Below, in pieces: positions 5,998 to 39,969 of a stretch of DNA of 64,000 bases. This stretch comes from Candidatus Melainabacteria bacterium 17Bon1m (GTDB lineage: Bacteria > Cyanobacteriota > Vampirovibrionia > Obscuribacterales > Obscuribacteraceae), in contig JAVLKG010000004.1 in the NCBI GenBank assembly GCA_032128875.1, positions 1 through 64,000 on the forward strand, in the 5' to 3' direction. Position 1 is the first letter of the stretch. Every line of letters starts with the position of its first letter. Under the pieces are notes generated by a model, which was given only the letters and a program-made list of their open reading frames with translations, ran no database searches and was not told the DNA's origin. Both the position numbers and the translations under genes were made by a program.

Positions 5998-6108
5998 ATG
6001 GCATCCGAACCGAAAAAACTATCTCTTGAGCAATTGCTCCGCCTTGTTGTTCGCAAGGCGATGGAAAGCGCGCAGGAGCAGATCAAATTGTTTGGTAAGT
6101 TCGAGTGA
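5998..6108 (+). CDS. Small hypothetical protein (36 aa)
   Basis: GGGGAG Shine-Dalgarno before ATG; MASEPKKLSLEQLLRLVVRKAMESAQEQIKLFGKFE; fills the gap before the next gene. Confidence 0.35.
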   Translation: MASEPKKLSLEQLLRLVVRKAMESAQEQIKLFGKFE

Positions 6109-6118
6109 GGTTGCAGGC

Positions 6119-6940: not shown

Positions 6941-7812
6941 GTGACCAAAGCAATAGTGATGACACCCCGAAGAAACAATTAGAGGTTTCCGGCTCTGGAA
7001 CTGGCGGTAGAAAACGCACAGCAGTTGGGGCTGGCGATGGAGGAGAGGGCGACGCTCCTAAGGAATTTCCTGGTGGCTCGGAGTACCCATCATTTGAGAT
7101 CCTTCCGCGCGTAGTAATCTGCGAGCCGAATGAATTAGTACGCGCCGGAATGAGAAGAATGATTCCGTTTTGCAACGTGATTGGCGAGGCTACTGAGGGT
7201 ACGCAAGCGCGGGAATTAATTCGAATGCTGCAACCAGACTTGGTAATTACTGAAATAGAAATTGATGGATTTGACGGAGTTGAGCTATGCAGCCAGATTC
7301 GTGATTTGTCATCGAGGTCTGCAATTTTGATTTCGACGCATTCTTACAATGCGACGAAGTTTTTTCATCGAGTAATGCGAAACGGGGCCAACGGGGTGTA
7401 CCTAAAGCGCACTGGGCGACTGGAGCTGGTTAGGGCGGTTTCTGATGTATTGAATCATCGAGACTATTGCGATGAAACTATTTCGAGACTGCTCAAACAA
7501 CATCCATCTCAAATTAACTCACTTGATGAGGGTTTGACGGAGAGAGAAATTGATGTACTAATTCGCCTGGATTTGCGAAACAGAGAAATTGCTGATGAGT
7601 TAGGGATTCAGCTACAAAAGGTTGAGAACGTGATATTTAGCATTCTGAAAAAGCTCAATACGGAGACGCGGACTCAGGCAGCACTTAAGGCAGTAAATGT
7701 GGGTTTCAAGCTGATTCCAGTGATGCCTAGCCGTAACAATATTACGGGGACCACGGAGGATGAAGAGATGGCATGGGCACATGCAGAGGCTGCACTAAAA
7801 GAAGGTGATTAA
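6937..7812 (+). CDS. NarL/LuxR-type response regulator with atypical receiver
   Basis: Receiver fold with acidic-site substitutions (ICEP, VITEIE); LuxR HTH LTEREIDVL...NREIADELGI. Confidence 0.8.
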   Translation: MSDQSNSDDTPKKQLEVSGSGTGGRKRTAVGAGDGGEGDAPKEFPGGSEYPSFEILPRVVICEPNELVRAGMRRMIPFCNVIGEATEGTQARELIRMLQPDLVITEIEIDGFDGVELCSQIRDLSSRSAILISTHSYNATKFFHRVMRNGANGVYLKRTGRLELVRAVSDVLNHRDYCDETISRLLKQHPSQINSLDEGLTEREIDVLIRLDLRNREIADELGIQLQKVENVIFSILKKLNTETRTQAALKAVNVGFKLIPVMPSRNNITGTTEDEEMAWAHAEAALKEGD

Positions 7813-8125
7813 AAGTCACCGCGTTTGACTCCGATCGCAAGGAGCAGCGTTTGTCCGCTCGTGCTCGAAAGCGCGCCGAAGTTGATAAAATATCGATGTG
7901 CATAGTTCAAAAGTGACTTTGAGATTGAACTATCTCCATTTTCAGGCGCGTGTTGGAGGTACACTCTTTGACTGCGCCTGTCCTTAAATTTGAGCGGCAG
8001 TTGGATAAAGTGATGAGACGCTATTTGCTCACGTTCGGCAGGCGATGTATTGGGCAAATCCGAAATATAAGCTCGAACTGCCGATTGAGGTTGGCCGTGT
8101 AGACGGGCCTAGAGACGTATCGCAT
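7809..8125 (-). pseudogene. Possible frameshifted small gene
   Basis: Strong RBS AAGGAGG plus ATG at 8125 gives only 34 aa; an overlapping frame stays open to 7809. Confidence 0.35.
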
Positions 8126-8197
8126 GGTGGAAATCCTCCTTGGTAGTGGTTCTGCTAGCAAGCTTGGTGCTAGTCAAGCTAAGCTTCGGAATCTTGA

Positions 8198-9226
8198 TCA
8201 AACAGTAAAATAGGGGCCAAGCAACTGTCTTATTAACAGCCAGAAATATCCCTTTTGAACCTTTCCACCTGAAAGTTGAATCCTTGAATGCGTTTTCTTT
8301 TTTTCACTCTGGAAGGCAAAGTCTCGAACGACCATAAAGTTAGCAGCACGTTCTGGATGCTCTGAGTAGTAGGTCCACACTATTTTGTCTCCTTCCTTGT
8401 ATTTCATGGTGAAGCCTAATGCTTTGTCATCAGACCAACACGTTTGTTTATGCAATGGAGAAGAGCCGTCGATATCCTGTGTTCTGTATCTCCTAATGCC
8501 GAACCATTTCTCTCTGCCGAAGATTGGATTGGCAGAACTCATGGCTTTTGCAAGAGTCTTTGGCGTCATTTTGTCGATGAGGTAGTGCAGAATGTTTCGA
8601 TCGGTTGCGTACATCAGTACGCCAGGTCGAGGGGAAAAAATGAAGAAATCTCCGAGGGCGCTAGTTCGCTGATCATAGGTTATGCGCATCATCGTAAACT
8701 CGCCGCTCTTCGAGTATTCGGTCGCGTGCGAACGCATTGCTCGCACGAACTTATCCCATCTTGATTGATTATTATTCGAGAACACCAAAACATGCGCCGA
8801 ATCGTAGGGTGTTTCGAATTGGAGAAACGATGGATTGAGGTATGGAGCTTTCTTCGTAAAGTTCATCTCTATCTCAAGTGCCATCAAGAGCGTCAGCCCA
8901 TCTGCCGCTTCATGAAACCAATCTTCGCCCCATGAAAGCGGTCCGGCACTACGACCTTGAAGTATCTGGAGTAATGACTTTCCTTCCATCCAGTCATTGG
9001 ATTTGCCCAGGCGAACTGGACCTCTGACCCTTGTGACAGTTTGGGCTGAAGGTGGCACCCAGGATAAGGAGCCAGTTCCAAAAGCAGGTAAGGTGTCTTC
9101 TGAATTCTTCGTGCTAAAACAAACAAGAAATGCGACGATTACAGGCAGTGCGGGCGCCGCAAGCCAGCGTGTAGCAATAATCTTTTGCGCAGCTACGAAA
9201 ATTGAAGGCACGATTATTCCTGCCAA
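8198..9226 (-). CDS. Hypothetical membrane-anchored or exported protein
   Basis: 342-aa ORF with hydrophobic N-terminus. Confidence 0.65.
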   Translation of the reverse strand: MAGIIVPSIFVAAQKIIATRWLAAPALPVIVAFLVCFSTKNSEDTLPAFGTGSLSWVPPSAQTVTRVRGPVRLGKSNDWMEGKSLLQILQGRSAGPLSWGEDWFHEAADGLTLLMALEIEMNFTKKAPYLNPSFLQFETPYDSAHVLVFSNNNQSRWDKFVRAMRSHATEYSKSGEFTMMRITYDQRTSALGDFFIFSPRPGVLMYATDRNILHYLIDKMTPKTLAKAMSSANPIFGREKWFGIRRYRTQDIDGSSPLHKQTCWSDDKALGFTMKYKEGDKIVWTYYSEHPERAANFMVVRDFAFQSEKKKTHSRIQLSGGKVQKGYFWLLIRQLLGPYFTV

Positions 9227-9342: not shown

Positions 9343-10314
9343 CTAGAGTTTCCAGCAACTTAATAACAACGATTTATCATCTTTGGTACGAGACTCAGTA
9401 AAGATGAGCCCCAGCTGCGCATCCATGAATGAGAACCTGCCATTTTTAGGAATTTTGAACCGTTCAGTTTCCTGCAGTTTCTGATCCGTTGAATACACAT
9501 AAACATCTTTTGCATCGTGAGCTTGTGTCAACCAAAGAAACTGCGCTCCGTTGGATACACTTAGCAAATCAAACTTCATTTTCAATTTGTGCTGAGCCAC
9601 TATCGAACCATCTTTGAGCGACAGTACAGAAACGCGTCCATACGACGGACCTGGGCTGCAAACAGAATATTGAGTGTCTGCATACAGTTCACCTTCTGAG
9701 ACCCAAAGTGTTTTCGTCTTATGGTCGAGTGATGAATCGATGAATCGGGTATCCTCAAGTAACAATGTTGGCTTTCTCAAGTCGTTCTTATTGAATCGCC
9801 AAACTTTGCCATCTTCACCACAACAAGCTAGGAAAGTATCTCGTGATTCGCGTAAAAGCGGTCTGCCCATGCCGACTCGCACTCTCTGCACTTTCATTGT
9901 GTCTAGGTCGTATAGCGTTACTGTGTCTATTCGTCCATTCTTCATCGCAAGAGTGTTACCAATTCTCATGATTGAATGCATGTAGGCAGGCACTTTTCGA
10001 TCCCACCTATCGAGTTCTTCCATATTCTCTGACAGCAGAAAAATTTTCTTGTCGCTATTTGTGAGGATGGTTTTGGTTTCCTCGTCATGGTATGCAGCAT
10101 TAATGCTTGACCTGGGTCTGAAATTGCAAAGCTCCTTGCCGGTTTTTAAATCAAGTCTTCTAAGCCGTATTCCGGCGAAGGCGCACCCCCAGCCATCAGA
10201 CACCAACAGCGATTTTAATTGGGGCACCAAAGTTACAGACCCAGTTGTAACCCATGCCTGAGTAGGCAACTGTGCCGTCCAAATCAATTCAGCCAAGGTA
10301 TACCGCCTCTCCAC
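9343..10314 (-). CDS. Beta-rich (propeller-like) hypothetical protein, paralog 1
   Basis: Shares VPQLKS...AGIRLRRLD and DAQLGLIFT...CWK with 10342-11310 and 15735-16703. Confidence 0.75.
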   Translation of the reverse strand: MERRYTLAELIWTAQLPTQAWVTTGSVTLVPQLKSLLVSDGWGCAFAGIRLRRLDLKTGKELCNFRPRSSINAAYHDEETKTILTNSDKKIFLLSENMEELDRWDRKVPAYMHSIMRIGNTLAMKNGRIDTVTLYDLDTMKVQRVRVGMGRPLLRESRDTFLACCGEDGKVWRFNKNDLRKPTLLLEDTRFIDSSLDHKTKTLWVSEGELYADTQYSVCSPGPSYGRVSVLSLKDGSIVAQHKLKMKFDLLSVSNGAQFLWLTQAHDAKDVYVYSTDQKLQETERFKIPKNGRFSFMDAQLGLIFTESRTKDDKSLLLSCWKL

Positions 10315-10341
10315 GATGTTGGGAATTCAATGAATAGCTGC

Positions 10342-11310
10342 TTATATTTTCCAGCACGTTAGCTTGAAACGCTCTCCTCCCGAGAACCTCCTTTCCGTAA
10401 AAATCAGTCCACTGGGTGCATCCATGTGTCCGAGATCTTCTTCGTCTGGAATCTCGAATTGTTTTACTTGCTTCATTCCCTCTTTGATTGAGAGAACGCA
10501 GACATGAGATCTGTGATAGTTCGAGCAAGTTTCAATGTCGCAGCGAGTTTCTCTTGCTACCCATAGGAAGTTACCGTCTGCGGTGACCGAGATTTTTTTG
10601 AAATGAAAATCCAAAGCGAATTCTTCGATCATGAATGGGTGAACCAAAGAGAGCCTGTGTACCTTATTTGTGAGTTCGTAGAGATTCATGCTTTCTTCGG
10701 ATAACCATAGTGTTTTACTCTCATGATTAATTGCTGAGCCGTCGAAGAACAGCTGTTTTGCTAGCAAATTCTCACTATCATATGTATCTAAATTGATGCG
10801 CCAAACGCTTCCATTCTTGCTGCAACATGCGAGGAAAGTTTCTGGATGGATATCTCTGTAAAGTGGAACTCCTGCTCTCAGCTTGATTCTTTTAACTTGC
10901 TTTGAATTCAAGTCATACATGCTTACTGCTGTTCCAGGAGAAAAACCCTTCATTGCCACCATGCGACCAAGATGGAGCATTGATGTTGTGTTCGCAGGTA
11001 CACGAGTTTCACAACGCAGGATTTCCGAGAGCGTCATTGAAGAAAGTAGGAACAGACGGCGTTCTGTGTTCGCTATCACTTCGGAAAAATCTGTGGAAAA
11101 GGCCAAATCGTAAACATGCGCTCGCGTTAGAAAGTTTGCAAGCTCCTCTCCAGAGTGCATGTCGAGTCTTCTTATCTTCATGCCTGCATACATGTTGGAG
11201 CCGTTGAGATAGAAGACTGACCGCAACTCAGGTACCACAATTACGTGATTACAGAATCGTTCTTTGAACTCTTTTGTCCACAAAAGTTCTGGCAAGATCA
11301 ATTCTCCCAA
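10342..11310 (-). CDS. Beta-rich (propeller-like) hypothetical protein, paralog 2
   Basis: VPELRSVFYLNGSNMYAGMKIRRLD; HMDAPSGLIFTERRFSG. Confidence 0.75.
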   Translation of the reverse strand: MGELILPELLWTKEFKERFCNHVIVVPELRSVFYLNGSNMYAGMKIRRLDMHSGEELANFLTRAHVYDLAFSTDFSEVIANTERRLFLLSSMTLSEILRCETRVPANTTSMLHLGRMVAMKGFSPGTAVSMYDLNSKQVKRIKLRAGVPLYRDIHPETFLACCSKNGSVWRINLDTYDSENLLAKQLFFDGSAINHESKTLWLSEESMNLYELTNKVHRLSLVHPFMIEEFALDFHFKKISVTADGNFLWVARETRCDIETCSNYHRSHVCVLSIKEGMKQVKQFEIPDEEDLGHMDAPSGLIFTERRFSGGERFKLTCWKI

Positions 11311-11631
11311 TTATTGCTCTTGGTTTGGAAACATTACATGGTTGCCACTGCACTCAGGTTTGGGCTTTCGCGGTTTGCCAGTCGGGTATCTAGGATCATC
11401 ATTGTCGGGCTCGTTTCCACCTGGATCTCCCTCAAGCCATCGGATAAGGGTGTCTTTCGCCGTATTTAAGTAGATTGCTGCCTCATTGTCACCGCCCTGC
11501 TCTGGATGAACTCCCGGAGCAGCGATTTGTTTCTTCCATGCAGTCAGAACGGAGTCAACAGTTAGATCATCAGTGCGCACTCCTAGAAGCATGCACGCCT
11601 TACGAATTTCAGGTGGTAGTTTTCTTTGCAC
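11311..11631 (-). CDS. Small J-domain-like protein (HPE instead of HPD)
   Basis: ACMLLGV...AWKKQIA...VHPEQGGD...LNTAKDTL. Confidence 0.65.
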   Translation of the reverse strand: MQRKLPPEIRKACMLLGVRTDDLTVDSVLTAWKKQIAAPGVHPEQGGDNEAAIYLNTAKDTLIRWLEGDPGGNEPDNDDPRYPTGKPRKPKPECSGNHVMFPNQEQ

Positions 11632-11711
11632 TCCGTTCCTCCAATCCTATTATGCGGGATTGGTCTATCTAAATTCTCTACGAATAGTTCAATTTTGGGG
11701 CAGCAATTCCT

Positions 11712-12080
11712 GGTTGATTTCAGTTGCAGACAAAAACAGCATGCATTCCCGCATACATTAGTTGCGATCTAAAATGGTCAATGATCTTGAAAGCGCCATA
11801 TCCAACGCTAATAAGGCGCCCAAAAAAGCTCGAAGTAATTCGCTCAAAATGAGCGCAAAGTTTCCCGGAACCGAAGTAGGATTGCTTCTTGATATTGATT
11901 TCGCAAACGAATTGCGATTTTTGCCACCTGTGCATCGATCCAGGCGAAGTAAATTGCTCATCTTTTAAAAGCGAATTGCGCAAAAGCCATGCAGCACAGC
12001 TATTCCCGGCAAAACGAATTACCTTGTTTCTCCTGCCTCCGTCCTACGGGCTCCACGAAATTCGCCACTTATGGGGGAGC
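11712..12080 (+). repeat. Dispersed ~360 bp non-coding element, copy A1 (oriT-like)
   Basis: Starts GGTTGATTTC; TTATGGGG begins 357 bp later; gap-free homology with 16853-17222; variant core TCTCCTGCC at 12029. Confidence 0.8.
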
Positions 12081-13106: not shown

Positions 13107-15071
13107 TTAGTCCTGATCGCTAGCAGCGAGCACTGCTATGTGTCGCTTGTCGGGACGAAGGCACACAATCCCCAAATCCCACGCGATGTTATAAAACCAT
13201 TTTGATGTCGATGAGAGAGACCACCAACTGCTCTGTTTTACGGCATTAAGAACATCGTCGACGGTGCCGCTCGCTCCAACGCCGGTCAGCGCACCTAAGG
13301 ATTGCCAGGCGGCTAATCGTCCGTACGCGCCACCTTCGCCTCCGGAGTATGCACCGCCGCTCGACGCAACTCCAAACATCATCTCAAAAATCCTGTCTGC
13401 TGGAACGGGTTTGAATTCCACTTCGCGTGGCGTCATGCCAGCTATGCATTCAAGTTGCAGCTTCAACAATTGCTTTGTAGATAGGTCAGTCGGAGAAATT
13501 GCTGAAGAAATTTCGAACAGTTTTGACTCAGACTTTCCATTGGAACGTTTTTTCCATGACTGAACACATCTAACTGCGGCTTCCTCGTTGAACAGAATCG
13601 GCACCGCGGTGAATGGATTTTCTGGAGCAGTTCGTGAGGGCTGCTTGTCTAATGTTCCTTGTACCGAGGTGGACGGTAAGTGTTTGACGCTCCTGCCAGC
13701 GTTGTAGATGGGAAATGAAACTAAACCTTCAATGTCCGTTCTATGAAGCGGAAGCCAAGCAAGCGGGTTGTTCTCTTTCTTGAGTTTTTGCCAAAATGTA
13801 CATATCTGCTCATCCTTGTCGTAGTCAGCACCTCTTACTACTGATTCCTGAACGAGAGGAGTAATCACTTCTGGGAATTTGGCGTCTGCTAAGTGGCTGA
13901 TGATGAATGCTTTTGTTTCCTCTGATGTGTGCGTCGAAGCAATCATTGACGCTGCATGCAATGGGCTGCGTTTTGCTTCGAGTGTTAGCTCAATTCCAGC
14001 ATCGATCTGCTCTACTTTATTCGACTGACAGAGTTCATCGATAACGTCTACGACTGGCACAAAGTGAACGCCATTCGATGCTGGAGCTTCAGCACCTATT
14101 CTCTTCATGTCATAGTTGCGCGACTTTGCGATTTTCTTGACGTTATCCAATTTTGTCTTTTGCAAGAAATCGGTGGGCAGTGAAGGCGGCCTTTGCAGCG
14201 ATTCCACAGGAACTCCCAGTGGTGTACAAGCGAGCAGATGATGCTGCGACGGAAGTTCGACAGAGTATGAAACGAACAATCTCTTTCCTGAAATGCTTGC
14301 CATAGTACCGATTTTTTGGAATAGCATTTCAAACTCATTCAGGAATTTTCCTGGCATCTGCAAATAATAGCCACCATATTCTCTCGGATTTGCGGCGTTT
14401 AGCTGAGGCCAGTTTGCGGGCCATGTGACAGACTTCCTTCCTTCTCCTTCGTTTAGGGTGACATCAAAATATTCTGGGACCCATGGATGCGCGTCCTTGG
14501 GTTCGAAATAGTGTGTTTCATACCAGGCTCCGAGAGCGCTTTGCGGTATTTCACCACTACCATAGAGCGGACTCTGACACTTAACTGCAGGTAAAGAAGT
14601 TGAATATGATGCTGTTTTACCATTGCCAGTTTTCTGGATTGAAACAGGACCGTACATCGCTAGCTGACGCATAACTTTGCCGTCGTCAAAGATGATTTGG
14701 CTGTTGCGTTGATCTTCTGCTTCCGTAAAAGCAAAATTGGTCTTCACGTCAGGCAATTCAGCGACGATTTTTTCGAATGTCTGCCATGCTTCACCATCTA
14801 CGGTGCCAGTAATAAAACCACCAGATTGTTTCTTCCGATCTCTGTAAATGACTGTTCGATTTGAATACAAGGCAAAACGCACAGGAGTGCCTTCTTGCTC
14901 TGAGTAGTCTTCAGACTCAAAAAGCCCGAGTATTGGCTTTGGGTCATTGGACTTCTGGCAATTGGTAGTTAGTTCAGAACTTTGCACGATTGCTCCAACA
15001 TGCCAGCTTAAAATCAGGAGAATTAGGGTGTGTGTGATCTGCTTGTCGCGGCTTCGCTTTCTTATATGCAT
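13107..15071 (-). CDS. Exported protein with C-terminal DUF6183-like domain
   Basis: Signal-like N-terminus; GGAYSGGEGGAYGRLAAWQSL and WDLGIVCLRPD...VLAASDQD. Confidence 0.65.
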   Translation of the reverse strand: MHIRKRSRDKQITHTLILLILSWHVGAIVQSSELTTNCQKSNDPKPILGLFESEDYSEQEGTPVRFALYSNRTVIYRDRKKQSGGFITGTVDGEAWQTFEKIVAELPDVKTNFAFTEAEDQRNSQIIFDDGKVMRQLAMYGPVSIQKTGNGKTASYSTSLPAVKCQSPLYGSGEIPQSALGAWYETHYFEPKDAHPWVPEYFDVTLNEGEGRKSVTWPANWPQLNAANPREYGGYYLQMPGKFLNEFEMLFQKIGTMASISGKRLFVSYSVELPSQHHLLACTPLGVPVESLQRPPSLPTDFLQKTKLDNVKKIAKSRNYDMKRIGAEAPASNGVHFVPVVDVIDELCQSNKVEQIDAGIELTLEAKRSPLHAASMIASTHTSEETKAFIISHLADAKFPEVITPLVQESVVRGADYDKDEQICTFWQKLKKENNPLAWLPLHRTDIEGLVSFPIYNAGRSVKHLPSTSVQGTLDKQPSRTAPENPFTAVPILFNEEAAVRCVQSWKKRSNGKSESKLFEISSAISPTDLSTKQLLKLQLECIAGMTPREVEFKPVPADRIFEMMFGVASSGGAYSGGEGGAYGRLAAWQSLGALTGVGASGTVDDVLNAVKQSSWWSLSSTSKWFYNIAWDLGIVCLRPDKRHIAVLAASDQD

Positions 15072-15130
15072 CTTGATTGACTTGGCTGGATAATAGTTTC
15101 ATTGTTACTGTGCCTGCAAGGAGAAGAAGT

Positions 15131-15670
15131 GGGTGATTTCGGCAAGATTGAGACACATCACTGAAACTAGCATTCGTTAGTAGCCATCTACATTGCCGCA
15201 TGTTCGTCAACAGGACATATTGAGAAACGCTCAGGCGCGCAAAAATGGGTTAATGGGCGCCTGTGAAAATGCAGATGGCCGGATCAGATGTGGCTCATGA
15301 TGCGGATTAACAACCTGATTTTCGAGGGGAATGCCTTAAAGACTCCACTGGTTCTAGAGAATGGACATTGGGCACCCCTTTCCTTTTTTTTGAGAACCCC
15401 TTAAAGGGTACACAGGCGCATCGATACGGGAATTTGGCGCCTGTCGGCCTTTATCCTGCCTCCGGACCTTCGGGCTGAAGCAAAAATAGAGAATTATGGG
15501 GTACTTCCTCAGACATATAAGAATTCCCCCGCCCCCATCTGCCGCTCTGCCCGAATACCGTCGAACAAGGGTCCCGGAGTGAAGGTTGCCGGAGGCATCC
15601 GAAGGACTTGACCTTCGCTCCGGGTGTTCAGCGGTAGGCTGTTCGCCCGGCAGAATTGGCGGGGGCTACC
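15131..15670 (+). repeat. Dispersed non-coding element, copy B1 (oriT-like core plus 140 nt branched hairpin)
   Basis: GGGTGATTTC to TTATGGGG is 363 bp; TATCCTGCC at 15452; hairpin 15526-15665; homologous to 32812-33364. Confidence 0.85.
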
Positions 15671-15734
15671 GTAATTGCCCTGCTCCGGCCATGCACATAT
15701 TTTGAGTGGTAAACGATAAGACTGAAATCTTGTC

Positions 15735-16703
15735 CTACTTGCCGAATTTCCAAGCATTTAGCAGAATTCGACTTTCGCCAGAGAATCTCCCATCAGTGAA
15801 GATAAGTCCAGCCTGAGCGTCTAAATGCAAGTACCAGAAATGTCCAGGCAGTTTGAATTGGTCTACCTCTTTTAGTTTTTCACGCACTGAGAGTATGCAC
15901 ACATGAGTTGGATGATAGAGAGGGCAGGTACCGCAGAGTTTTTCTTTCACCACCCAAAGAAATTCGCCGCTGCTGTCGATGGCAAGGCGTGAGAATAGAA
16001 ATTCAAGATTGAATGTCTGCACATTGGAAGGGTCTTTCACAGATACTGAGCGCAGAATGTTTGTGGACTTACCAAATGCGTAGAAAAAATTTCCATTCAA
16101 TCGCTCTGGTGTTGCTTCCGACAACCACAGCGTTTCCGTCTTGACACACATCGCTGCGTCGTCGAAAAGTAATCCGGTTAGTATGTTCTCTCGCTTTCCC
16201 GAAAGCACATTCAATCTCCAAACACTTCCATCAACTCCGCAACACGCTAGGAGACTATCCGGAAAGATGTCCGGAAATAACGGTTCCCCTCGTCCAAAGT
16301 TGAAGCGTTGGACCTTAGATGTATTCAAGTCGTACAGTATAACTGCATCTTGTACCCCGCCTTTCATCGCCAATATATTGTCGAAACGCAAGGGTGAACC
16401 CATTAACTTTGGAACGCGAGTTTCCCACCGTTTTATTTCGGATAAGGATTTCGACGATAGCAAGAAGATTTTGCGATCAGTATTAGCGATAACCTCAGAG
16501 AAGTCTTTCGAAAAAGCAAGATCGTAAACGTGAGCTCTAGTGAGATAACTGGACCGCTCTTCCCCGGAGTCAATGTCCAATCTTGTAATTTTCATGCCTG
16601 CATACATTTGTGAGCCATTGAGAAAATAGACCGAACCTAATTCCGGTACAACGCGGGCGGTTCCACTTCCCTTGAATTCTTTGGTCCAAAGCGGAGTAGC
16701 CAT
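15735..16703 (-). CDS. Beta-rich (propeller-like) hypothetical protein, paralog 3
   Basis: VPELGSVYFLNGSQMYAGMKITRLD and LTRAHVYDLAFS nearly identical to paralog 2. Confidence 0.75.
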   Translation of the reverse strand: MATPLWTKEFKGSGTARVVPELGSVYFLNGSQMYAGMKITRLDIDSGEERSSYLTRAHVYDLAFSKDFSEVIANTDRKIFLLSSKSLSEIKRWETRVPKLMGSPLRFDNILAMKGGVQDAVILYDLNTSKVQRFNFGRGEPLFPDIFPDSLLACCGVDGSVWRLNVLSGKRENILTGLLFDDAAMCVKTETLWLSEATPERLNGNFFYAFGKSTNILRSVSVKDPSNVQTFNLEFLFSRLAIDSSGEFLWVVKEKLCGTCPLYHPTHVCILSVREKLKEVDQFKLPGHFWYLHLDAQAGLIFTDGRFSGESRILLNAWKFGK

Positions 16704-16852
16704 AGGAATGTAGTCCTCACTAAAACCGAACAGATCTACGAAATTGCACGCAGGGATCTCTAACTCCTATTAGTCCACGACAATCCTCTTCTTGAAACAA
16801 CTATCTGGCACCAGTAACTCGGATCGCTCTGCGATTTGAGATACAAATTTCA

Positions 16853-17222
16853 GGTTGATTTCGGCAAAGTTGAAAGAGGCGACTGGAACTCGCATTCATT
16901 AGTGAATATCCAAACAGGTCAACGGTTCTCAAAGCGCCATATCTGTTGGAAGTCAGGCGCTGAAAAACGTGCGAGGTAATGCGCGGAAGCTATGCGAAAA
17001 ATTTCGCTTAGCAGCAACCAGACTGTATTGAAACTCTGTTTTCGCAAACGAATTGCGATTTTTGCCAACTGTGCACCGATCTGGGCGAAGTAAATTGCGC
17101 TGCTTCAAAAAGCGAATTGCGCAAAAGCTATGCAGCACATGACTTTCCGTCAAGACGAATCACCCACTTTATCCTGCCTTCGTCCTGCGGACAAAGGCAA
17201 AATAGACAATTATGGGGTATCC
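16853..17222 (+). repeat. Dispersed ~360 bp non-coding element, copy A2 (oriT-like)
   Basis: GGTTGATTTC to TTATGGGG is 357 bp; TATCCTGCC at 17170. Confidence 0.8.
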
Positions 17223-17343
17223 TATGTCCACGCAGCTCAGTATCCCAGTTCAACAAGGAGCGCAAACTCTTCTTCCGAGCCGCCCTAAGAAAGTTTTGCG
17301 TTGTAAAAATGACTCAAGGAAACCTCTTTACTTTCACAACACT

Positions 17344-18234
17344 ATGAAAATTTTGTCGATTGATGGTGGAGCCCCCCTAATCCCGTACATTTTTTTGAAT
17401 GAGTTGGAGAAAAGAACTGGCAAGTCAATTCCGGAGCTTTTTCAATTGGTGGTCACAGTATCCACTGGAGCCTTCCCAGCCTTCTTCTTTACGCATCCAT
17501 CTCTGCGAAGCTCTCTTTCAGAAGTACAGCAACTTCAGATTTTGAGAGCCAGTTTTGCCAACAGAAATGCATTTAAAAATGAAGTAGAGAAAAACTTCTC
17601 AACGTATAGACTTAGAGATGTAGGTACGGACCTAGTGGTAGCTTGCTACGACGCGATGTCCCGAGACGAATTTCTCTTTCAAAGTAGAATTGCAAAAAAG
17701 CGAAGTGGATTTGACTACACTGTTAATCAGGTACTAAAGGCCTCGTGCGCGAAGCCGAGTGTTCTTGATCCATTTAAATTGAAACGAACTGACGGAACAG
17801 AGAGTTTGCTTCTGGACGGTGGAGTTTTGGGCAGCAATCCCGCAAACATCGCAAGTCGAGAAGCACGGTCGGTTTATGCCGAAGATAATCCGGTTATTGT
17901 TTCCGTTGGTACCGGATCAGTTGCGCGCGACACCTCAATGGTGAACCTCGAAATCAAAGATCCGCAATCTCTGATGCTTTTTACGCAGGCTGCTTCTGGA
18001 ACAGTAGGGAGTTTCGGTCCGCCAGAGTTTACCGCACTTGGTGCAACCACAGATGTAACTCTTTCAATTTTTCCGAATTCGAAATTTCGTTTTGACACTG
18101 AGTTGACATCACATGGTAAATCATTCTGGTACACGGACGACATTTTCGAAATGCAAAAAAAAGCGGCCAGAGCACTAATTGAACAACAAAGCGTCCGCTT
18201 AGATGAACTTTGTAAGAGTCTTGTCTCTGGATAG
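17344..18234 (+). CDS. Degenerate patatin-like phospholipase
   Basis: MKILSIDGGAP (GGGxRG loop lost), TVSTG, LLDGG, VSVGTG; ATG at 17344 preferred over 17212. Confidence 0.8.
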   Translation: MKILSIDGGAPLIPYIFLNELEKRTGKSIPELFQLVVTVSTGAFPAFFFTHPSLRSSLSEVQQLQILRASFANRNAFKNEVEKNFSTYRLRDVGTDLVVACYDAMSRDEFLFQSRIAKKRSGFDYTVNQVLKASCAKPSVLDPFKLKRTDGTESLLLDGGVLGSNPANIASREARSVYAEDNPVIVSVGTGSVARDTSMVNLEIKDPQSLMLFTQAASGTVGSFGPPEFTALGATTDVTLSIFPNSKFRFDTELTSHGKSFWYTDDIFEMQKKAARALIEQQSVRLDELCKSLVSG

Positions 18235-18239
18235 TAGTC

Positions 18240-19265
18240 ATGCCTGTTAGAAGAATCCTTTCGATAGACGGTGGCGGAGTGAGAGGAATTATTCCGGCAT
18301 TGATCCTTGCTTACATCGAGCAGAGAGCGGCACTTCCCATAACGACCTTGTTCGATACCATAGCCGGAACCTCTACGGGGGGAATAATCGCATTATGTCT
18401 CACCAAACCTAACCCTGATGGTTCACCATGTTATTCAGCTGCTCAGTGCGCTCAACTTTACGAGAAATCTGGACAAAAGATTTTTCCACCCTTTGATTTA
18501 GCACTACGAAAATTCCTTGCAATTCGTGCGTTTAAACCATTTGCATATTGTCCATCAGGTCTCGAAACTGTTGTTGCGGACTATCTGGGTGATACCTTAC
18601 TTAGTCAAGCAAGTTCTGACCTCTTAATTTACAGTGCTAGAGTTTTTCCTCCAGGGATTTTTACTTTTAAACGGTTCGAATCATTAGAGAATGAGGATGC
18701 TAACTTTGCGATGAAAGATATTGCACGTGCAACTTCTGCCGCATCTACATACTTTCCACCTGCCACCATCAAGAATAGATCAAATGCACATGAGTTTAAT
18801 CTGATCGATGGTGGAACTTTAGTCAACAATCCTGCGCTTCGTGCCTATTATGACTCCAAAACTCGATTTCCTGATCATGATGTGTTCGTTTTATCAGTGG
18901 GAACAGGAGCGGTTACACATAAAAATCAAATGAAGGCGCAGGACGGATTCACGTTGGCACCGCTCCTCGCAGCACGAAAATTGATATCGTTCCAAATGGA
19001 CGGGACAAGCAAGCAAGCGCACAGAGACCTTATGTCCATACTTCCAATCCAGCTGCATCAAAACGGCAACCAAGAACACAGACGATATTATCGAATCCAA
19101 TGTCGATTGGAGAGTGACGCGGAAGATTTAGATAACTCAGATCCGAAAAATTTGAAAAAACTTCGCAACTTGGCACAAGAGATGATTGATGACAGTCGCG
19201 ATGTTCTCGATTTTATCGCAATGAAATTGGTCGCTCTCCATTTAGCGCAACAGAACCATGAGTAA
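18240..19265 (+). CDS. Patatin-like phospholipase with intact catalytic motifs
   Basis: DGGGVRG, GTSTG, ATSAA, DGG..NNP, LSVGTG. Confidence 0.92.
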   Translation: MPVRRILSIDGGGVRGIIPALILAYIEQRAALPITTLFDTIAGTSTGGIIALCLTKPNPDGSPCYSAAQCAQLYEKSGQKIFPPFDLALRKFLAIRAFKPFAYCPSGLETVVADYLGDTLLSQASSDLLIYSARVFPPGIFTFKRFESLENEDANFAMKDIARATSAASTYFPPATIKNRSNAHEFNLIDGGTLVNNPALRAYYDSKTRFPDHDVFVLSVGTGAVTHKNQMKAQDGFTLAPLLAARKLISFQMDGTSKQAHRDLMSILPIQLHQNGNQEHRRYYRIQCRLESDAEDLDNSDPKNLKKLRNLAQEMIDDSRDVLDFIAMKLVALHLAQQNHE

Positions 19266-22200
19266 CGATGACGCTAGCGCCACATATCGAGGATATCGGA
19301 GGCAAGCCATTTATGCCTTGTTTCGCCTCTTTAGTGACAGTCTGCCGGACGGATGTGTAATCCAACCTGAGGGGACTGAGGACCTCGCAATTTTTGACAA
19401 TGCAGGTAAGCTAATTGAGATAGTTCAGGTAAAGGATCATACTGATAAACTTGCAGCCTCTAGTTTTAAGCCTTCGTTTTACGAAAGGGTATCGCCCTAT
19501 TGTGCACCTGATTCTTCAACAATTGTTCGCATAGCTACCTTCGGTCCAATTGGGCCAGATCTTCAAGGTGCTATATCCGGTGACCAGGTTGCTCGGTCTC
19601 GTGTTCTGAAAACGATTACCAACTATCTAAGCGAAAGGCACGCAACTGCGAATTTAGGCAAGGCTCAGAAGCGGCCTGATGTGCAAGCCAGTGAAATCAT
19701 TGCTCATATCGATGTGACGCCGGTAGCTGAGGTAGACCTTGTAAATACGATTCTTTCCACTCTTTCTAATACAGTCACAGGAGTCAGTCCGAAACAATCA
19801 TTTGAGTTTTTGATGTGGTGGCTGCTCACAGCGTCAGAAGCAAAATTGAAAATCAGTCGAAACAAAGCCATCGCTAAGATTCAGAGTATCGGGAAATTTT
19901 TGTCTCAACGAGCAGCTTATTATGACGAGTGGTACTCCACAATTGTGCCGATTGTACCCTCTGATGATTCAACGAGACGCGTTAATAATTTTGAAAATGA
20001 GTTTTATCGCGGAGGGCGAGTTAGTTTTGATCATATAGAGCTGGGACTAGATGTTCCACGGAACCGCTTCTTGAAAGATATCCATGACGCATTTAAGGAT
20101 AACAGTGTAGTTGTTATCCATAGTGCGTCTGGGCAAGGAAAGACTACTCTTTCATACAGATACGCAAAGGATTTCGCCGCTTCTGATTTTCGACTTGAGG
20201 TTTTGACTTCATCAGACCTTAGGCAAGCGAGAAGAATCGCACAGGCGTTGATAGGCCATGCAGAAGCAGTGGAAGTACCTACTTTGATATTTTTCGATGT
20301 AAGGCCGGGAGACATTCTATGGCTTGATGTTGTTAGAGAACTTGTATCAGTAGGTGGAATTAGAGTCCTAGTTTCGGTTCGTGAAGAGGATTGGAAGCGC
20401 ACTCGCATAAGCGCCGCCGACTTTTCTTTTGCTGAAGTCTCACTATCTTTGGAACAGGAAGAGGCAAAGGCTATTTATGATCGTTTGACCAAACGAGTTG
20501 CAAATGATCGGCATCTAGACTTTGAAGATGCTTGGAGTCAGTTTGGTGTCCGAAAGACTCTTTTTGAATTCGTGTACTTCATTACTCAAGAAGAATCTCT
20601 AGCGACAAGGATTTCCTCTCAAATCAGGGCGCTTCAAGATGAGGTAACAGTCGGGAAGAGAAGTAAAGGCGAGGTTGACTTGCTTCACCTCGTCGCAGTG
20701 GCGTCAGCTTATGAAGCTAGATTAGATCTGGCGAAACTTGTGGCTCACTGTAATCTGCCTTCTCCACAAAGAACGATTGAGAGATTTGACAATGAATACC
20801 TCATTCGTGTGTCTGTTGATGGAGCTAATGTCGAAGGGTATCATTCAATTCGTAGTGAAATAATTGCGAACAACTTAACCGACAAAGTAATCAGCCCATG
20901 GTCCAATGTTGCATCACAAGTCTTGCCGCTCATCTTAGAAGCTGATTTAAGCGGTTTCTTGCTTTGTGCATTCTCTCGACAACCTGAAGCGGCTAAAGTT
21001 TTAGTTCCTGCGTTGACGCATTTTCAACCATGCACTTGGATAGGTACTCTAAGTGTTGTTACTTCTCTAATGTGGAATGGGCTTAAGCTGTACGCAGAAC
21101 ACAACTCTTCATTACTGGATGAAATCTACGAGCAAGTGGACTCACGCTGGCATTTGACTTTGGACTGGGAATTGGGCCAAGCTCTCGGTAAAGACGGACT
21201 TAAGTTTTACGAGTCTATTGCAGAGGTCTCGGCTAGATTCAAAGGCGCTGTGGAGTATTCTCAAAAGGCTAAAGAGAGGCAGTCTGAAAAATGCAATGTA
21301 TTCGCAGATATGCAAACCTGGTTGGAAGGCTGCTCAAGGCTGCCTTCTGCTCCGAGTAACGCTCAAGATTTCACCGCAATGTCAGAGGTATTCTTTTGGC
21401 TTGGGCATTTAAAGATTAGGTCTACATTACAGGAAGCCATATCGGTAGACATCATTGAGTGTGCGCGTAACAAACTCTCTCTCTATTCATTTGGCGAATT
21501 TATTCGAGGCATTCGGGAATCCGCCAATGATGTTTATGGCGCCTGGCTTAAAGCTAACCGTACGGATTTTATTCACGAGTTAAGAAAGGAATCCGGAGTT
21601 CTCGCTCTGGACGAAACCACGGATGCAATCGTCGCTCATTTCATTATCGACTTCGACCGGCAATTTTCCTTACTTAGTTCTCGTGGAGTTTCGCCGAATA
21701 GTGCCAAAGCTACCATCCATGATTTAACGATTGAAAGAGTTACATTATTGAGCAACCTCTTTTCCAATAAAAAGCAATACGGTGCTGTTGGCTATGGTCA
21801 CAGAATTTCGCTTTTCCCACATTCTTGGGATGAAGCAAATAAGCCTGGTGTCTTATCGCAAAACTTGCATCCAAAATGGCCGTTGCTCTTTAATGCTTTA
21901 GCACGAGGGCGCGTGGAACTCAAATACCGCCCTGCAAATTGGGAACTGTACTTCCAACTACTTCAATTGTTGCGAGAAAATGTATTGAATGCATTCACTG
22001 ATTTGCGGCAATCGATAATGCCTAAGAACTTGGCACTGAACGTCGGCAAATTTCCACTTGCAAAAATTGAGAGTTGGGAGCAGTGCCGAAAGGAAGTAGG
22101 AAAGCAATTGCTGTTACCTAAAGTGTCAGTTGATGAGTGGGGATATGTTACTGAGACCGCTAGAGAAAACAATGAAGATCCTAGACTAGAGCGTTTCTCC

Positions 22201-26240: not shown

Positions 26241-27542
26241 TGACTGGCCCGAGACATAGGTTACACATTGTTCCGGACACATAGGTTACACATTTGGGCC
26301 AAACGGGTTGTCGAGGGGCTGCAATGTTTTTTTCCTCTAAGTCAACGTAGCCAAGATCATACTGCATAAAACTGACCAGCCATACGCCGTCATCAACCTC
26401 TTTGACGCCTACAGCTTGTCCAGCAAGGCTTCTAGTTAGATTGATTTTCTTTCGGTAAAGGCAGAGGCGGCCGCAATTTGTGACGTTTACTGTTTTGTCG
26501 TGAAACGGATAGTCGGGTTCAGGAAGACCGTTGTAGACCCGCGTGGATGGCTGATAGATTTCCGCTGGAAACTTCATTTCGATCCCTGCGTGTGGACGTT
26601 CGTTGTTGAACTCATCAATGAAAAGGTCAAACGTTGTTTGCTGTTGAAAAATGTTTGCACCAGCGGGTCTTGTAGTTTCCTTCTTGAGCGTTAAGTGCAT
26701 GCGTTCATGTCGGCCGTTTTGCTGTGGATGTCCAGGTTTGATTCGCTCAATACTGATGCCGAGTCTAAGCCACCAAACAGATAGTTTTGATAAATTGAAC
26801 AATCCGTTTGGAGAAGCGAATGGAACGCCATTGTCTGATCGAATCGCAGTCGGCATGCCTCTTTCTTTGAACAGTCTTTCAAAGGCGGTTAATGCAAATT
26901 GTTCTTTAGTCGATTCTTGTGCTTCGCAAAGTAAGAGATATCGTGAGGCGTAATCCGTGACGGTGAGCGGATAACAGTATTGCTTGTTTCCTAGTTGGAA
27001 TTCACTTTTGTAGTCAGTGCACCAGAGATCATTTGGGCGAATGCCATCAGACAAGGGCGTGCCCTGTGCACGTTGTCTCCGCTTTCGTCCTTTTGAAACT
27101 AGATCATGTCTGTCAAGAACAGTATGAATAGTGCTGATGGCTGGAATTTTGATTTCGTGTGGAAGTGCGCGAAGAAGTTTCTCTCGAATCTTTCTTGCAC
27201 CCCAATTCGGTTTTTCCTTTTTTGCGGCAACAATTGCAGCCTCAACTTGAGGAGGCATCGCATTTGCGTATCGAACAGGTCTTCGGCTTCTATCGCTCAA
27301 TCCTTCGAAGCCGCATTCTTCGTAGCGCTCGACAATCTTGTAGCCGGTCTTGCGCGAAATTCCGAATTCACGGCACAAAGAACTCATGTCTTCGTCGTCC
27401 TTGTGGCGAATGACAAAGCGTATTCTTTCGTCCAAAACAGAACACTCCTTCCACGGCATCCACTCTCGCCTCCCGCTGGAAAGCGCAAAAGTGTATACCT
27501 TGTGTCCGGAACGTTCTGTAACCCATCTGTCAGGGCCAGACA
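26241..27542 (-). mobile_element. IS481-family insertion sequence
   Basis: Imperfect inverted repeats TGACTGGCCC...GGTTACA...TTCCGGACAC versus the reverse complement of 27490-27542; GT on both flanks. Confidence 0.88.
26286..27459 (-). CDS. IS481 transposase with a +1 slip near the C-terminus
   Basis: HTH (LCREFGISRKTGYK), WCTDYK / RSDNG / NGRHER DDE core; with A6 instead of A7 at 26327-26333 it ends EEKTLQPLDNPFGPNV* at 26286. Confidence 0.9.
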
Positions 27543-27600
27543 GTCTGAAAACCTAGCCGACAGCGGGATTTGAACCCGCGACCTACGGTTTACGAATCCG
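27543..27600 (-). repeat. att core: duplicated 3' half of tRNA-Thr plus flank
   Basis: GTCTGAAAACCTAGCCGACAG.GGGATTTGAACCC.CGACCTACGGTTTACGAA matches 39886-39939. Confidence 0.92.
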
Positions 27601-27815: not shown

Positions 27816-29021
27816 ATGAAAGCGGAGAAGGTCAATTTTAATAAGCGAAAGATAGAGTCCATGACTATTCCGGAAGGAGTGGCAAAGAAGGAGTTCTATG
27901 ATTCCATCCAACGGGGTCTCATTTTGAGATTGTCGAAGGGCGGCAGTAAGAGTTTTTACTTTAGAAAGACTGTCCAATACAAAATCGAGCGAGTTTTCCT
28001 CGGGCGCTTCCCTGAGATGAGTGTCGAGCAAGCCCGTGATGCCGCTGCTGCGATTTTGGCAGACGTGGGTAAGGGAATTAGCCCTCAAGCTGAAAAACTC
28101 GCCTCCAAGGACGAGCCAACCCTCGGAGAATTGTTCGAGAACTATCTTGAAGGTCACGCCCGCATACGCTGCGTTCGAGTGGCTGATATGGAGAAGGATT
28201 TCGTCCGATATGTTACTGATTGGCGTGACCGTAAATGGTCATCAATAAAGAGAGCTGATGTTCAAAACAGAGTCAATCATGTACGACAAAACAATGGACC
28301 TGCCGCAGCTAATCACATCATCATTTTAATGAAAGCAATGACGAGTTGGAATATTCGGAATGGATATATCGAAGGCGATAATCCCTGGCTGCCCATTAAG
28401 CAGTTCAAGATTCAATCCCGAGAGCGATTTCTCAGGCCGAACGAGATGGCAAATTTCTTTGCTGCTTTGAAAAAGGTCCCTGACGAAATGATGCGAGACT
28501 ACTTTGAGATTAGTCTCTATACCGGCGCTCGTAAATCAAACGTTCTTGCAATGCGCTGGGAAGATGTTGATCTGGAACTTGCAATCTGGCGAATTCCAAT
28601 GACTAAAAACAAGGAGTCGCATCTTGTTCCGCTTACCGGACCTGCTGTTGAAATTCTTCGCCGGCGCTCGGAATCCAGTAAGACTGGCTGGGTTTTTCCT
28701 GGTCGAATAAAGGACAGTCATCTCGTAGAACCTAAGAGAGTTTGGTACAAGCTGATCAAAGATGCTGGAGTAGAAGATCTCAGGGTTCATGATCTCCGTC
28801 GGACTCTGGCGAGCTACATGGCGATAACCAATCACAGCTTGCCGATCATTGCGAGAGCGCTTGGGCACAAGTCCACCCAAGCAACGCAAATCTATTCACG
28901 CTTGACGCAAGATCCCGTCAGAAACGCCATGGATTTGGCGATTGCGCAAATTCACCTCCTGGCAGAAAGCAAGGAAGAAGCAATTGCTGTAGATGCTGAA
29001 GTTAGCGATTCCTGTGCTTAG
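27816..29021 (+). CDS. Tyrosine integrase (P4-like, with arm-binding domain)
   Basis: TGAR, HDLRRT, LGH and TQIY catalytic motifs; N-terminal GLILRLSKGGSKSF...LGRFPEMSVEQAR. Confidence 0.95.
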   Translation: MKAEKVNFNKRKIESMTIPEGVAKKEFYDSIQRGLILRLSKGGSKSFYFRKTVQYKIERVFLGRFPEMSVEQARDAAAAILADVGKGISPQAEKLASKDEPTLGELFENYLEGHARIRCVRVADMEKDFVRYVTDWRDRKWSSIKRADVQNRVNHVRQNNGPAAANHIIILMKAMTSWNIRNGYIEGDNPWLPIKQFKIQSRERFLRPNEMANFFAALKKVPDEMMRDYFEISLYTGARKSNVLAMRWEDVDLELAIWRIPMTKNKESHLVPLTGPAVEILRRRSESSKTGWVFPGRIKDSHLVEPKRVWYKLIKDAGVEDLRVHDLRRTLASYMAITNHSLPIIARALGHKSTQATQIYSRLTQDPVRNAMDLAIAQIHLLAESKEEAIAVDAEVSDSCA

Positions 29022-32811: not shown

Positions 32812-33364
32812 GGTTGATTTCGGCAGAATTTAGGTTCACCATTGAGACAAGCATTCGTTAGTAGCAATCCAGATTCGTGCAGGTACATCAATGCGCCATA
32901 TTGAAGAACCGACAGGTGCGCAAAAATTGCCAATGGGCACCTGTAAAAAAGCAATTTTGGAGATCAAAAGTGGCTCGTGATGCTGATTCATGACATGATT
33001 TTGGAAGGGAATGCCTTTAAGCTGCCACTGGGCCCGATTGATTCGTATTCGGCGCCCCTCTCCTTTTTTTTGAGCACCCCTATTAAGAGCCATGGGCGCA
33101 CCGATACGAGAAATCGGCGCCTTTGGCCTTTATCCTGCCTCCGGACCTACGGGCAAAGGCAAAAATGGATAATTATGGGGTACCTGCTCAAATTTTCGCT
33201 CCGAAATCATATGAGAAATCCCCCGCCCCCATCTGCCGCTCTGCCCGAATACCGTCGAGCATGGGTCCCGGAGTGAAGGTTGCCGGAGGCATCCGAAGGA
33301 CTCGACCTTCGCTCTGGGTGTTCGGCGGTAGGCTGTTTGCCCGGCAGAATTAGCGGGGGCTACC
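32812..33364 (+). repeat. Dispersed non-coding element, copy B2 (oriT-like core plus 140 nt branched hairpin)
   Basis: GGTTGATTTC to TTATGGGG is 361 bp; TATCCTGCC at 33131; hairpin 33220-33359. Confidence 0.85.
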
Positions 33365-33429
33365 TTTCGGATTTTGCGCCTGAGTTATGATGCATTTGGT
33401 GGGAAGCAAGGCGATTGGCTTTAGTGAGT

Positions 33430-39897: not shown

Positions 39898-39969
<72 letters not shown>

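Follow-up and report, generated by a model that had tools for sequence, protein, structure and literature searches.

A conserved branched hairpin beside oriT-like sites in mobile elements of Candidatus Melainabacteria, a candidate single-strand initiation signal

The hairpin and its upstream module

The stretch of DNA analysed (the window) comprises 64,000 nts of the Candidatus Melainabacteria bacterium 17Bon1m genome, positions 1 to 64,000 of contig JAVLKG010000004.1 (assembly GCA_032128875.1), and carries on its plus strand two copies of a branched hairpin, termed the rod. Copy A is located at 15526..15672 and copy B at 33220..33366. An earlier note, made from the sequence alone, had described a hairpin of 140 nts at 15526-15665 and 33220-33359, and alignment of these two stretches gave the same seven differences and 95% identity; the homology is however 147 nts long and stops sharply at GGGGCTACC. 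When scored with a covariance model of the family (R1), copy A reached 160.2 bits on the plus strand as opposed to 29.2 on the minus strand, and copy B 161.5 as opposed to 22. Both rods are parts of one repeated unit, which spans 15131-15672 (542 nts) for copy A and 32812-33366 for copy B. The upstream part of this unit is more diverged, as the note had stated, with 77% identity between the copies over the 316 nts 5' of the rod and 88% over the 66 nts nearest to the predicted nick site (repeat family D8).

Three of the seven rod differences fall on unpaired bases. A Watson-Crick pair is converted to G.T at two positions (40 and 96), where three such cases had been counted previously, and the single mismatch repair that had been listed was found, with C.A replaced by C:G at position 105. 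At position 133, in the base of helix 1, C:G has become C.A.

The 5' part of the unit is a module (U) that resembles an origin of transfer (oriT). Four such modules of ~370 nts occur in the window, all on the plus strand and all with leftward genes on their left. The module of copy A (15131..15510) contains three hairpins and is defined by repeat families D1, D5 and D8, and that of copy B (32812..33190) was delimited by alignment and repeat families. Two modules lack a rod: one at 16853..17219, with an exact nick motif at 17168-17178 and a patatin open reading frame (ORF) directly after it, and a degenerate one at 11700..12075 (family D2), with TTTCTCCTGCC at 12027-12037. In window order, only the second module (15131) and the fourth (32812) precede a rod.

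Other genes adjoin these modules. Three paralogous genes of ~322 aa with no Pfam family, which share 34-50% identity, are located on the minus strand at 9343-10314, 10342-11310 and 15735-16703, and two of them are directly left of a U module, as if the module carried their promoter. A defence-like operon at 17212-23535 (plus strand), with genes for a STAND NTPase of 1425 aa and two patatin-like phospholipases, begins inside the module at 16853..17219, where the ATG of the conserved AATTATGGGGTA box provides its start codon.

Structure, covariation and folded strand

The plus strand of the rod folds at -76.8 kcal/mol with RNA parameters (z -5.05; none of 200 shuffles was as good), and all of the helices named in the earlier note are present. 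With DNA parameters the plus strand of rod A folds at -42.3 kcal/mol (z -5.46), and rod B at -40.2 kcal/mol on the plus strand vs -34.3 on the minus strand. R1 was built from 22 full copies and has a consensus fold of 45 pairs, which adds a small hairpin, GGC-N5-GCC, to the fold first described and so creates a three-way junction. From the outside, the architecture consists of helix 1 (CCCC/GGGG), an unpaired stretch with a second TCTGCC, helix 2 (TCTGCC/GGCAGA) and the three-way junction, which has near-invariant unpaired GAATA and T[A/T]GGCT; beyond helix 2 are the hairpin GGC-N5-GCC, a long arm and two apical mini-hairpins. In copy A the mini-hairpins TGCC-GGA-GGCA and TCC-GAA-GGA (15587..15606, plus strand) are both C(GNA)G triloops, as judged from the fold and from a tally of triloops in the homologues. 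TCTGCC occurs twice in succession on the 5' side (15538-15552), either repeat being able to pair with GGCAGA; the minimum free energy fold of the single sequence takes the first and the family consensus takes the second, and as both repeats are conserved, a switch of register is possible.

Covariation is present. In an alignment of 51 homologues, which was fitted to R1 and consists of related sequences so that the figures lean towards the structure, 96.4% of cells are paired, compared with 81.0% in column shuffles and 33-47% with slid partners, and 37 of the 45 pairs show changes on both sides (290 cells); none of 500 shuffles attained any of these measures. A MAFFT-based alignment of 22 sequences agrees, with 16/45 pairs compensatory, as do the slid controls. 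The plus strand is the one that folds, as had been proposed: there are 162 G.T cells vs 9 A.C cells, the plus strand has the more stable fold in 48 of the 51 homologues with RNA and DNA parameters alike, and R1 gives 120-161 bits on this strand across loci, where the opposite strand reaches 22-40 bits. The rod is a conserved structure in which only the plus strand is selected to fold.

The window rod and ten other loci were compared with Rfam 15, and no family was matched at its gathering score, the only matches being at chance level (E 3-9). A protein-coding explanation was considered since long minus-strand ORFs cross the rod in four loci (L014, L015, L016 and L032), but their frames differ (…CPANSQPS… vs …LLPGSEPTS…). 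As the reading frame over the rod varies between loci, what is conserved is the nucleic acid.

The apical loops are themselves conserved. Hairpin 5 ends in C[GNA]G in 40 of the 51 homologues and hairpin 6 in 35, with all four nucleotides occurring at N, and the tabulated terminal loops of the homologues are GNA triloops and a T-rich pentaloop. The heptamer CCGAAGG is located at 15599-15605 in rod A. Mini-hairpins of the GCGNAGC type are described, in the sections of PMC13037366 drawn on here, as extraordinarily stable as DNA, much less so as RNA, and as poorly bound by SSB (the protein that binds single-stranded DNA). According to the same sections such sequences are found at the complementary-strand origin of phage G4, and CCGAAGG is included in ssiA of plasmid RSF1010, which is recognised by RepB', a primase of the archaeo-eukaryotic primase (AEP) superfamily.

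A putative nick site upstream of the rod

The sequence TATCCTG|C had been reported upstream of the rods, and it is present before both, at 15452-15459 (67-74 nts before rod A) and at 33131-33138 (82-89 nts before rod B). The extended motif, TTTATCCTGCC, is located at 15450..15460 in copy A, with a predicted nick between G15458 and C15459, and at 33129..33139 in copy B (both plus strand), and it fits the MOBP consensus (C/T)ATCCTG(C/T). In copy A an inverted repeat CAGGCGC-N16-GGCGCCTG at 15413..15443 (plus strand), the proximal oriT repeat, ends 6 nts 5' of the motif, and in copy B an inverted repeat GGGCGC..GGCGCC is found at ~33094-33121. In the part of PMC3772185 that describes it, the MOBP nick region consists of 5'-(C/T)ATCCTG(C/T)-3' and a proximal inverted repeat, and the relaxase becomes joined to the 5'-cleaved end. 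With this polarity and the rod 3' of the motif, the rod-bearing strand should therefore enter the recipient first.

The MOBP nick core TATCCTGC is present in the window at 15452-15459, 33131-33138 and 17170-17177. TTATCCTGCC occurs exactly three times, all on the plus strand, and when one mismatch is allowed there are seven occurrences vs 2.97 expected; seven is reached by 4 of 100 shuffles, so the count alone is not significant, and it is the fixed position that matters. This position was followed in a context sample of 58 of the more than 250 R1 matches, made up of the 50 best-scoring loci and eight places from genomes with a single, lower-scoring match. Among the 50 loci, TT[TC]ATC[CT]TGCC or TTATCCTGC is upstream of the rod on the same strand in 26, downstream of it in none and on the other strand in two. 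The distance from motif to rod falls into classes of 76-104 nts (12 loci, both window copies included), 172, ~281 (three loci), 563-732 (six loci) and more than 950 nts. The inverted repeat directly 5' of the motif keeps its position while its sequence varies between loci (for example L014, L070 and L075), and in one subfamily TTTCATCTTGCC stands in place of the nick core.

This arrangement resembles the MOBP-type oriT of RP4, the Ti border and Helicobacter pylori tfs4 in its core TATCCTGC, in the inverted repeat immediately 5' of it, and in its site upstream of accessory and relaxase genes that read away from it. It differs in that the window sites have no relaxase nearby and that one subfamily carries TTTCATCTTGCC, and nicking at the motif is predicted from sequence likeness. 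The relaxase and accessory gene lie beside the motif in contig C27 of the same genome and in L014, L064, L067, L070 and L017, and in no case in the window; as no relaxase is nearby, the window sites are called orphan.

In L012 (G089:C3) an IS110-family element is present inside the nick motif, ~1.24 kb before the rod, with junctions CTTATCCTGC|TATCTTGC on the left and GATATC|TGCCTCCGG on the right. Because the junctions split the motif, the insertion sequence (IS) targets the oriT nick core. IS110-family genes are also found near the rod in L009 and L072. The possibility that the rod is the bridge or seek RNA of such an element was considered because the L012 transposase ends ~100 nts before the rod, but comparison with L030 shows that the IS has inserted itself in the nick motif and does not include the rod.

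Distribution and gene neighbourhood

BLAST detected a third rod copy in the window genome and one to five copies in relatives; with R1, six plus-strand copies were found in the window genome (60-161 bits), and copies within a genome are 60-95% alike. Of the 107 genomes of the order, 73 gave R1 matches, a single genome having as many as 16; 72 of the 73 are among the 103 genomes of the window's own family, and the other family (three genomes) gave none. One weak match (30 bits) was found in 150 other genomes sampled from the phylum, and a blastn search of PLSDB with the whole unit gave no match.

An apparently intact unit is present on contig C27 (14.5 kb). It encodes on the minus strand a coupling protein (5048-7012; PF02534, E 5e-55), a MobA/VirD2-type relaxase (7016-8422; PF03432 at 27.8 bits, above the cut-off, with weak RlxS/MobP1/MobP3 matches) and a 140-aa mobC-like ORF (8406-8828), which has no family match and is named by position only. 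The nick motif CCTTTATCCTGCC follows at ~8970-8982 (plus strand), 1.1 kb before the rod at 10076-10225 (plus strand, R1), and beyond this are the conserved part of a primase-like gene (10334-11695, minus strand) and an excisionase-like helix-turn-helix gene. Between motif and rod, in L054 on the same contig, is a 20-codon ORF (~9676-9738, minus strand) with GGAGGT before it; the encoded peptide is very hydrophobic and resembles a leader peptide or a small membrane toxin.

In 17 of the 50 loci the primase-like gene follows the rod closely on its 3' side, in antisense, with no other arrangement seen, and it does so in one of the eight further loci (L096); the remaining 33 of the 50 have no adjacent primase. 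The relaxase or mobC is antisense on the 5' side of the rod in six of the 50 loci, and a relaxase is on that side also in L091 and L097. In a second type of element the antisense genes next to the rod on the 3' side are those for SSB and a RadC-like JAB protein: both were recognised with Pfam in L091, as was SSB in L055 (the C17 copy of the window genome), and BLAST clustering places SSB/RadC homologues in L092, L097 and L098. The genes 3' of the rod are typical leading-region genes, and the plus strand is their template in every case. The window has neither relaxase nor primase, the only matches in this genome being on contigs C27 and C17, and the window copies are orphan 'oriT + rod' units, apparently within integrase islands, which, if they act as proposed below, could be mobilised and established in trans by elements like that on C27 of the same genome. 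VirB4 (PF03135) was not found in this 93%-complete genome, and coupling-protein matches are present at four places.

The rod lies after the primase gene, at 75-360 nts from its conserved end, or 280 nts after ssb, which would be compatible with a terminator or 3' untranslated region of these mRNAs, with the minus strand functional. Such a minus strand would bear 162 A.C mismatches and gives the worse fold in 48 of the 51 homologues, and there is no T-run. The presence of several copies per genome would also suit a functionless selfish repeat resembling a miniature inverted-repeat transposable element (MITE), but 15131-15672 is not bounded by terminal inverted repeats, and copies within one genome differ as described while their structure is kept by compensatory change, unlike a recent repeat burst (a single case in an IS256-like element, described below, excepted). 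Both explanations are considered very improbable. A housekeeping RNA gene that serves as an integration target was rejected too, as the eight single-match genomes mostly show mobile-element genes around the rod and no conserved chromosomal synteny.

Integrases are a further class of neighbour. The earlier note placed the two window copies in two islands, and this stands for copy B, which is inside an island of 12.3 kb; no borders were found in the DNA surrounding copy A. Island B is bounded on the left by a copy of the 3' half of tRNA-Thr (27542..27600, minus strand; family D9, 95% identical to 39885-39943) and on the right by tRNA-Thr (CGT) itself (39898..39969, minus strand), the integration site, and it encodes a P4-type tyrosine integrase (27816..29021, plus strand; PF00589 E 7.4e-27, PF13356 E 2.9e-14). 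A 51-nt repeat is present at 26174, 27708 and 39820 and suggests tandem or decayed islands further left. The rod copy on contig C1 has an integrase 7 kb distant, and one is present in L093 and L095; in L094 the BLAST queries used identified no mobile gene. In L037 (G084:C17), a Tn7-like set at 4430-8052 comprising tnsB (rve and Mu-transposase C), tniB, tniQ and then a 543-aa protein of no family adjoins a truncated integrase, 1.6 kb from the rod.

The rod could be a recombination or protein-binding site of islands, such as a folded attachment site for the integrase or an insertion target, and not a replication signal. In L080, L081 and L084 it flanks a P4-type integrase gene on the 5' side and in L093 it lies just after one, the ends of homology are sharp, and in L023 two rods stand in tandem of which the second lacks its 5' strand. 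Nevertheless, the one window island with mapped borders recombines at tRNA-Thr and has the rod in its interior, and the neighbour is a primase in 18 loci and SSB in five, without an integrase within 1.5 kb. This explanation is judged improbable.

The neighbouring primase-polymerase

Sequence profiles gave only sub-threshold matches for the primase-like protein, to AEP-TOTE (PF22548, E 1.5e-4) and PrimPol_Msp (NF040561, E 3e-5). An AlphaFold model was made from 43 sequences (pLDDT 80.3), and its best Foldseek match was the CAPP Prim-Pol domain 7p9j (E 1.6e-7, TM 0.65-0.69 on the target), followed by LigD polymerase domains, RepB' of RSF1010 (3h20, E 1.2e-3) and other PrimPols. D81, D83 and H120, which form the DxD and H motifs, are invariant in the 43 sequences, and the C-terminal half is helical. 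On the basis of this model, the gene 3' of the rod in intact elements is predicted to be an AEP primase-polymerase.

Homologues come from sources with names such as Candidatus Obscuribacter and Melainabacteria, and all named ones are annotated 'hypothetical protein'. As the protein also matches proteins of cyanobacterial plasmids at 27-37% identity over ~160 aa, a CyRepA-type cyanobacterial replicon was considered, but that is a different system: CyRepA is a protein with DUF3854 and DEXDc domains in the relevant portion of PMC10079941, and the origin region of pSYSA is given in part of PMC9978351 as an RNA pair upstream of rep. The match on pSYSG is an unannotated hypothetical protein.

A candidate single-strand initiation signal

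On a modest balance of probability, the rod is a strand-specific, cis-acting single-strand initiation signal (ssi) or single-strand origin (sso) on the transferred strand of conjugative or mobilisable elements. This corresponds to the single-strand DNA signal entering the recipient first of the earlier note, which is the best-supported part of its proposal given the nick layout, the same-strand position, the leading genes and the strand selection; its Frpo-like variant was not supported, as discussed below. In the proposed mechanism, a MOBP-type relaxase would nick at TATCCTG|C and the plus strand would leave 5' end first, so that the rod, 75-1100 nts past the nick, would be among the first single-stranded DNA in the recipient. 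There it would fold into its three-way-junction form, with the C(GNA)G mini-hairpins and the long stems keeping SSB off, and the folded rod would be the priming site for complementary-strand synthesis, i.e. an ssi/sso. Where the element itself encodes an AEP primase-polymerase beside the rod, this enzyme would make the primer; elsewhere one acting in trans or a host enzyme would do so. With the rod just 3' of the nick, synthesis would be unable to pass oriT before the strand has been recircularised.

The last argument is one that was made for sso1 of the integrative and conjugative element (ICE) ICEBs1. In the passages of PMC4595007 that concern it, sso1 is ~200 bp long, has several stem-loops, is orientation-specific, is located downstream of oriT and is needed for stable acquisition of a mini-ICE, and its authors propose that, owing to this location, the attachment site is kept from becoming duplex before recircularisation. 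The rod resembles sso1, and ssoA, ssoT, ssoU and ssoW of rolling-circle replicating plasmids, in being an imperfect stem-loop structure of ~150-200 nts with one orientation on one strand, and a like function may be supposed by analogy. It also shares with sso1 the position downstream of oriT in an integrative element, and mini-elements with oriT and sso are the ones found to be dependent on it in the same passages (PMC4595007). It differs from the known types in forming a single rod that has a three-way junction and ends in twin triloops, as opposed to three separate stem-loops, in its Melainabacteria-family host, and in often being paired with an element-encoded primase-polymerase where an sso relies on the host RNA polymerase. 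No sequence likeness to sso types was seen, no sso library having been compared.

The pairing of a hairpin signal with an adjacent AEP-fold primase that has a helical C-terminal domain, on a mobilisable element, recalls ssiA/ssiB and RepB' of RSF1010 (IncQ). The CCGAAGG mini-hairpin is shared with ssiA, in the sections of PMC13037366 already referred to, and the model of the neighbouring protein matches the fold of RepB', among others. On the other hand, ssiA is 40 nts long with one hairpin and is paired on both strands in oriV, whereas the rod is 147 nts, single and beside oriT; the best fold matches of the protein are the CAPP Prim-Pol and the LigD polymerase and not RepB', and 33/50 loci are without an adjacent primase. 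The complementary-strand origin of phage G4 is comparable in having GNA/GNNA mini-hairpins that remain free of SSB and mark the primase start (same sections of PMC13037366). It belongs to a phage and not to a conjugative element, has three separate hairpins, and is likened to the rod by these features and not by sequence.

The Frpo and ssi promoters of F and IncI are also long folded elements on the transferred strand, with leading genes (ssb etc.) templated by that strand. An Frpo-type single-strand promoter, in which the folded strand mimics a duplex promoter and the host RNA polymerase transcribes early genes or a primer RNA, would suit the leading-region site of the rod on the template strand of its neighbouring genes, and TTGnnn and T[A/T]GGCT boxes are present on the 3' arm. 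These boxes are however 21 nts apart and not 16-18, so that there is no properly spaced -35/-10 pair, and several homologues (e.g. L013, L014, L032, L033 and L034) have T in place of A at position two of the '-10' box. No sigma-70-type hexamer pair is present in or just before either window rod; the promoter scan gave no site in 15050-15800 and one in 32750-33450, which is after rod B (33415-33442). Moreover, a transcript on this template would run back to the nick over 75-1100 nts (75 nts in the window copies), and the leading genes are on the other side of the rod. Located on their nick-proximal, 3' side, the rod therefore cannot drive them, unlike Frpo, and a promoter of this type is regarded as improbable.

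A plus-strand non-coding RNA (ncRNA) of mobile elements, either antisense to the 3' end of leading genes (primase, ssb) or trans-acting in copy control, incompatibility or anti-defence, has an appreciable, minority probability. Covariation and a G.U bias are as in structured RNA, there is conservation of the nucleotides at the junction, one subfamily has an A-rich box (ATAAAAGAAT-like) ahead of the rod, and an IS256-like element in genome G037 carries a rod in sense in its 3' region. However, neither window copy has a sigma-70-like promoter or an intrinsic terminator, and as the 5' flank differs between subfamilies (A-rich box vs GTTCTAAG), no promoter is conserved family-wide. The apical loops are C(GNA)G triloops and not the GNRA or UNCG tetraloops that are usual in RNA (PMC13037366, sections as above). 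Furthermore, the position of the rod is fixed to the nick motif and its strand and not to any one gene, and orphan copies without an adjacent antisense target retain the rod as the best conserved part of the repeat (95% identity vs 77% upstream). The loops, the lack of transcription signals, the fixed position and the conservation of orphans together favour DNA over RNA as the acting molecule. Three libraries recorded as RNA come from the same sample as the DNA run, and over 14000-18000 of the window they show identical contigs of 13,097 and 17,670 bases and identical breakpoints; they are DNA-like and uninformative on transcription.

Several observations weigh against a single-strand initiation signal. 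Covariation and G.U wobble would fit an RNA equally well, and the primase ORF is open across the rod in several loci, in differing frames. A primer made just 3' of the nick would leave the leading genes to become duplex last, which is not obviously efficient. The nick motif is not recognisable within 1.5 kb in 24 of the 50 loci, perhaps because the motif varies, the distance is larger or the contigs are short, and context was examined for the best-scoring places only. Described sso types carry as landmarks the recombination site B (RSB) and, in a terminal loop, the conserved sequence 6 (CS-6) TAGCGT. The latter is absent from the tabulated loops of the homologues. No relaxase is seen in L080, L081 and L084, where the rod adjoins a divergent P4-type integrase, and the two tandem rods of L023 (G091:C399, 1500-1809) are 14 nts apart, the first divergent and complete (65 bits) and the second of the window type with the 5' strand of helix 1 replaced by unrelated sequence. 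In G037 the rod homologue (74 bits) is in an IS256-like element of 1.54 kb, in sense between the transposase stop and the right end; this element has 14 near-identical copies (L085-L088, e.g. L085 2714-4251) with a frameshifted mutator-type transposase, and a single-stranded stage is not expected for such an element. Because of this evidence the initiation signal is preferred only slightly beyond an even chance, the ncRNA keeps its substantial minority share, and the other explanations are rated low.

More tentatively, and as a possibility that we would not yet favour, the nick motif and the rod may form a portable two-part cis cassette, consisting of a transfer origin and a dedicated priming site for the primase-polymerase of conjugative elements, which was captured by integrase-only islands and at least once by an IS and which hitch-hikes on elements that encode a relaxase and primase. 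If this is the case, this uncharacterised PrimPol family would have in the rod its first described natural recognition site, and Melainabacteria or Cyanobacteriota their first known ssi/sso, with the twin C(GNA)G mini-hairpins as the SSB-excluding feature. A folded single-strand signal in the leading region is known as a kind; the particular structure found here, the group of its hosts and its association with a primase-polymerase that is uncharacterised are absent from Rfam and were not found in the open literature searched, supplementary files being outside that search.

Conversion of the transferred strand to duplex in the recipient is known for few plasmids and one Firmicutes ICE. The rod provides a well-defined candidate, with strong covariation, a clear gene context and a ready partner protein, in a phylum whose conjugation biology is almost unexplored. 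It makes testable whether orphan 'oriT + rod' units allow islands to be mobilised, what a bacterial conjugative PrimPol recognises, and whether GNA mini-hairpins are general marks of priming sites on single-stranded DNA. In addition, the covariance model can be used to mark the leading end of these elements in genomes assembled from metagenomes.

Other features of the window

The GC content is 44-47% over 1-40 kb and ~50% beyond. Just outside the tRNA-Thr island, at 40760-40898 (plus strand), is a full-length match to poplar-1 RNA, an orphan Rfam family (134.7 bits vs a gathering score of 110.5). Short palindromic repeats of the GGTCGACGCATGGCGTCGACC and GTGGGGGCGTGTTGCACACGCCC types are present in the non-island part of the window, at 40984-41012, 63338-63366, 47179-47252 and 60379-60432, and look like a family of the repetitive extragenic palindromic (REP) type.

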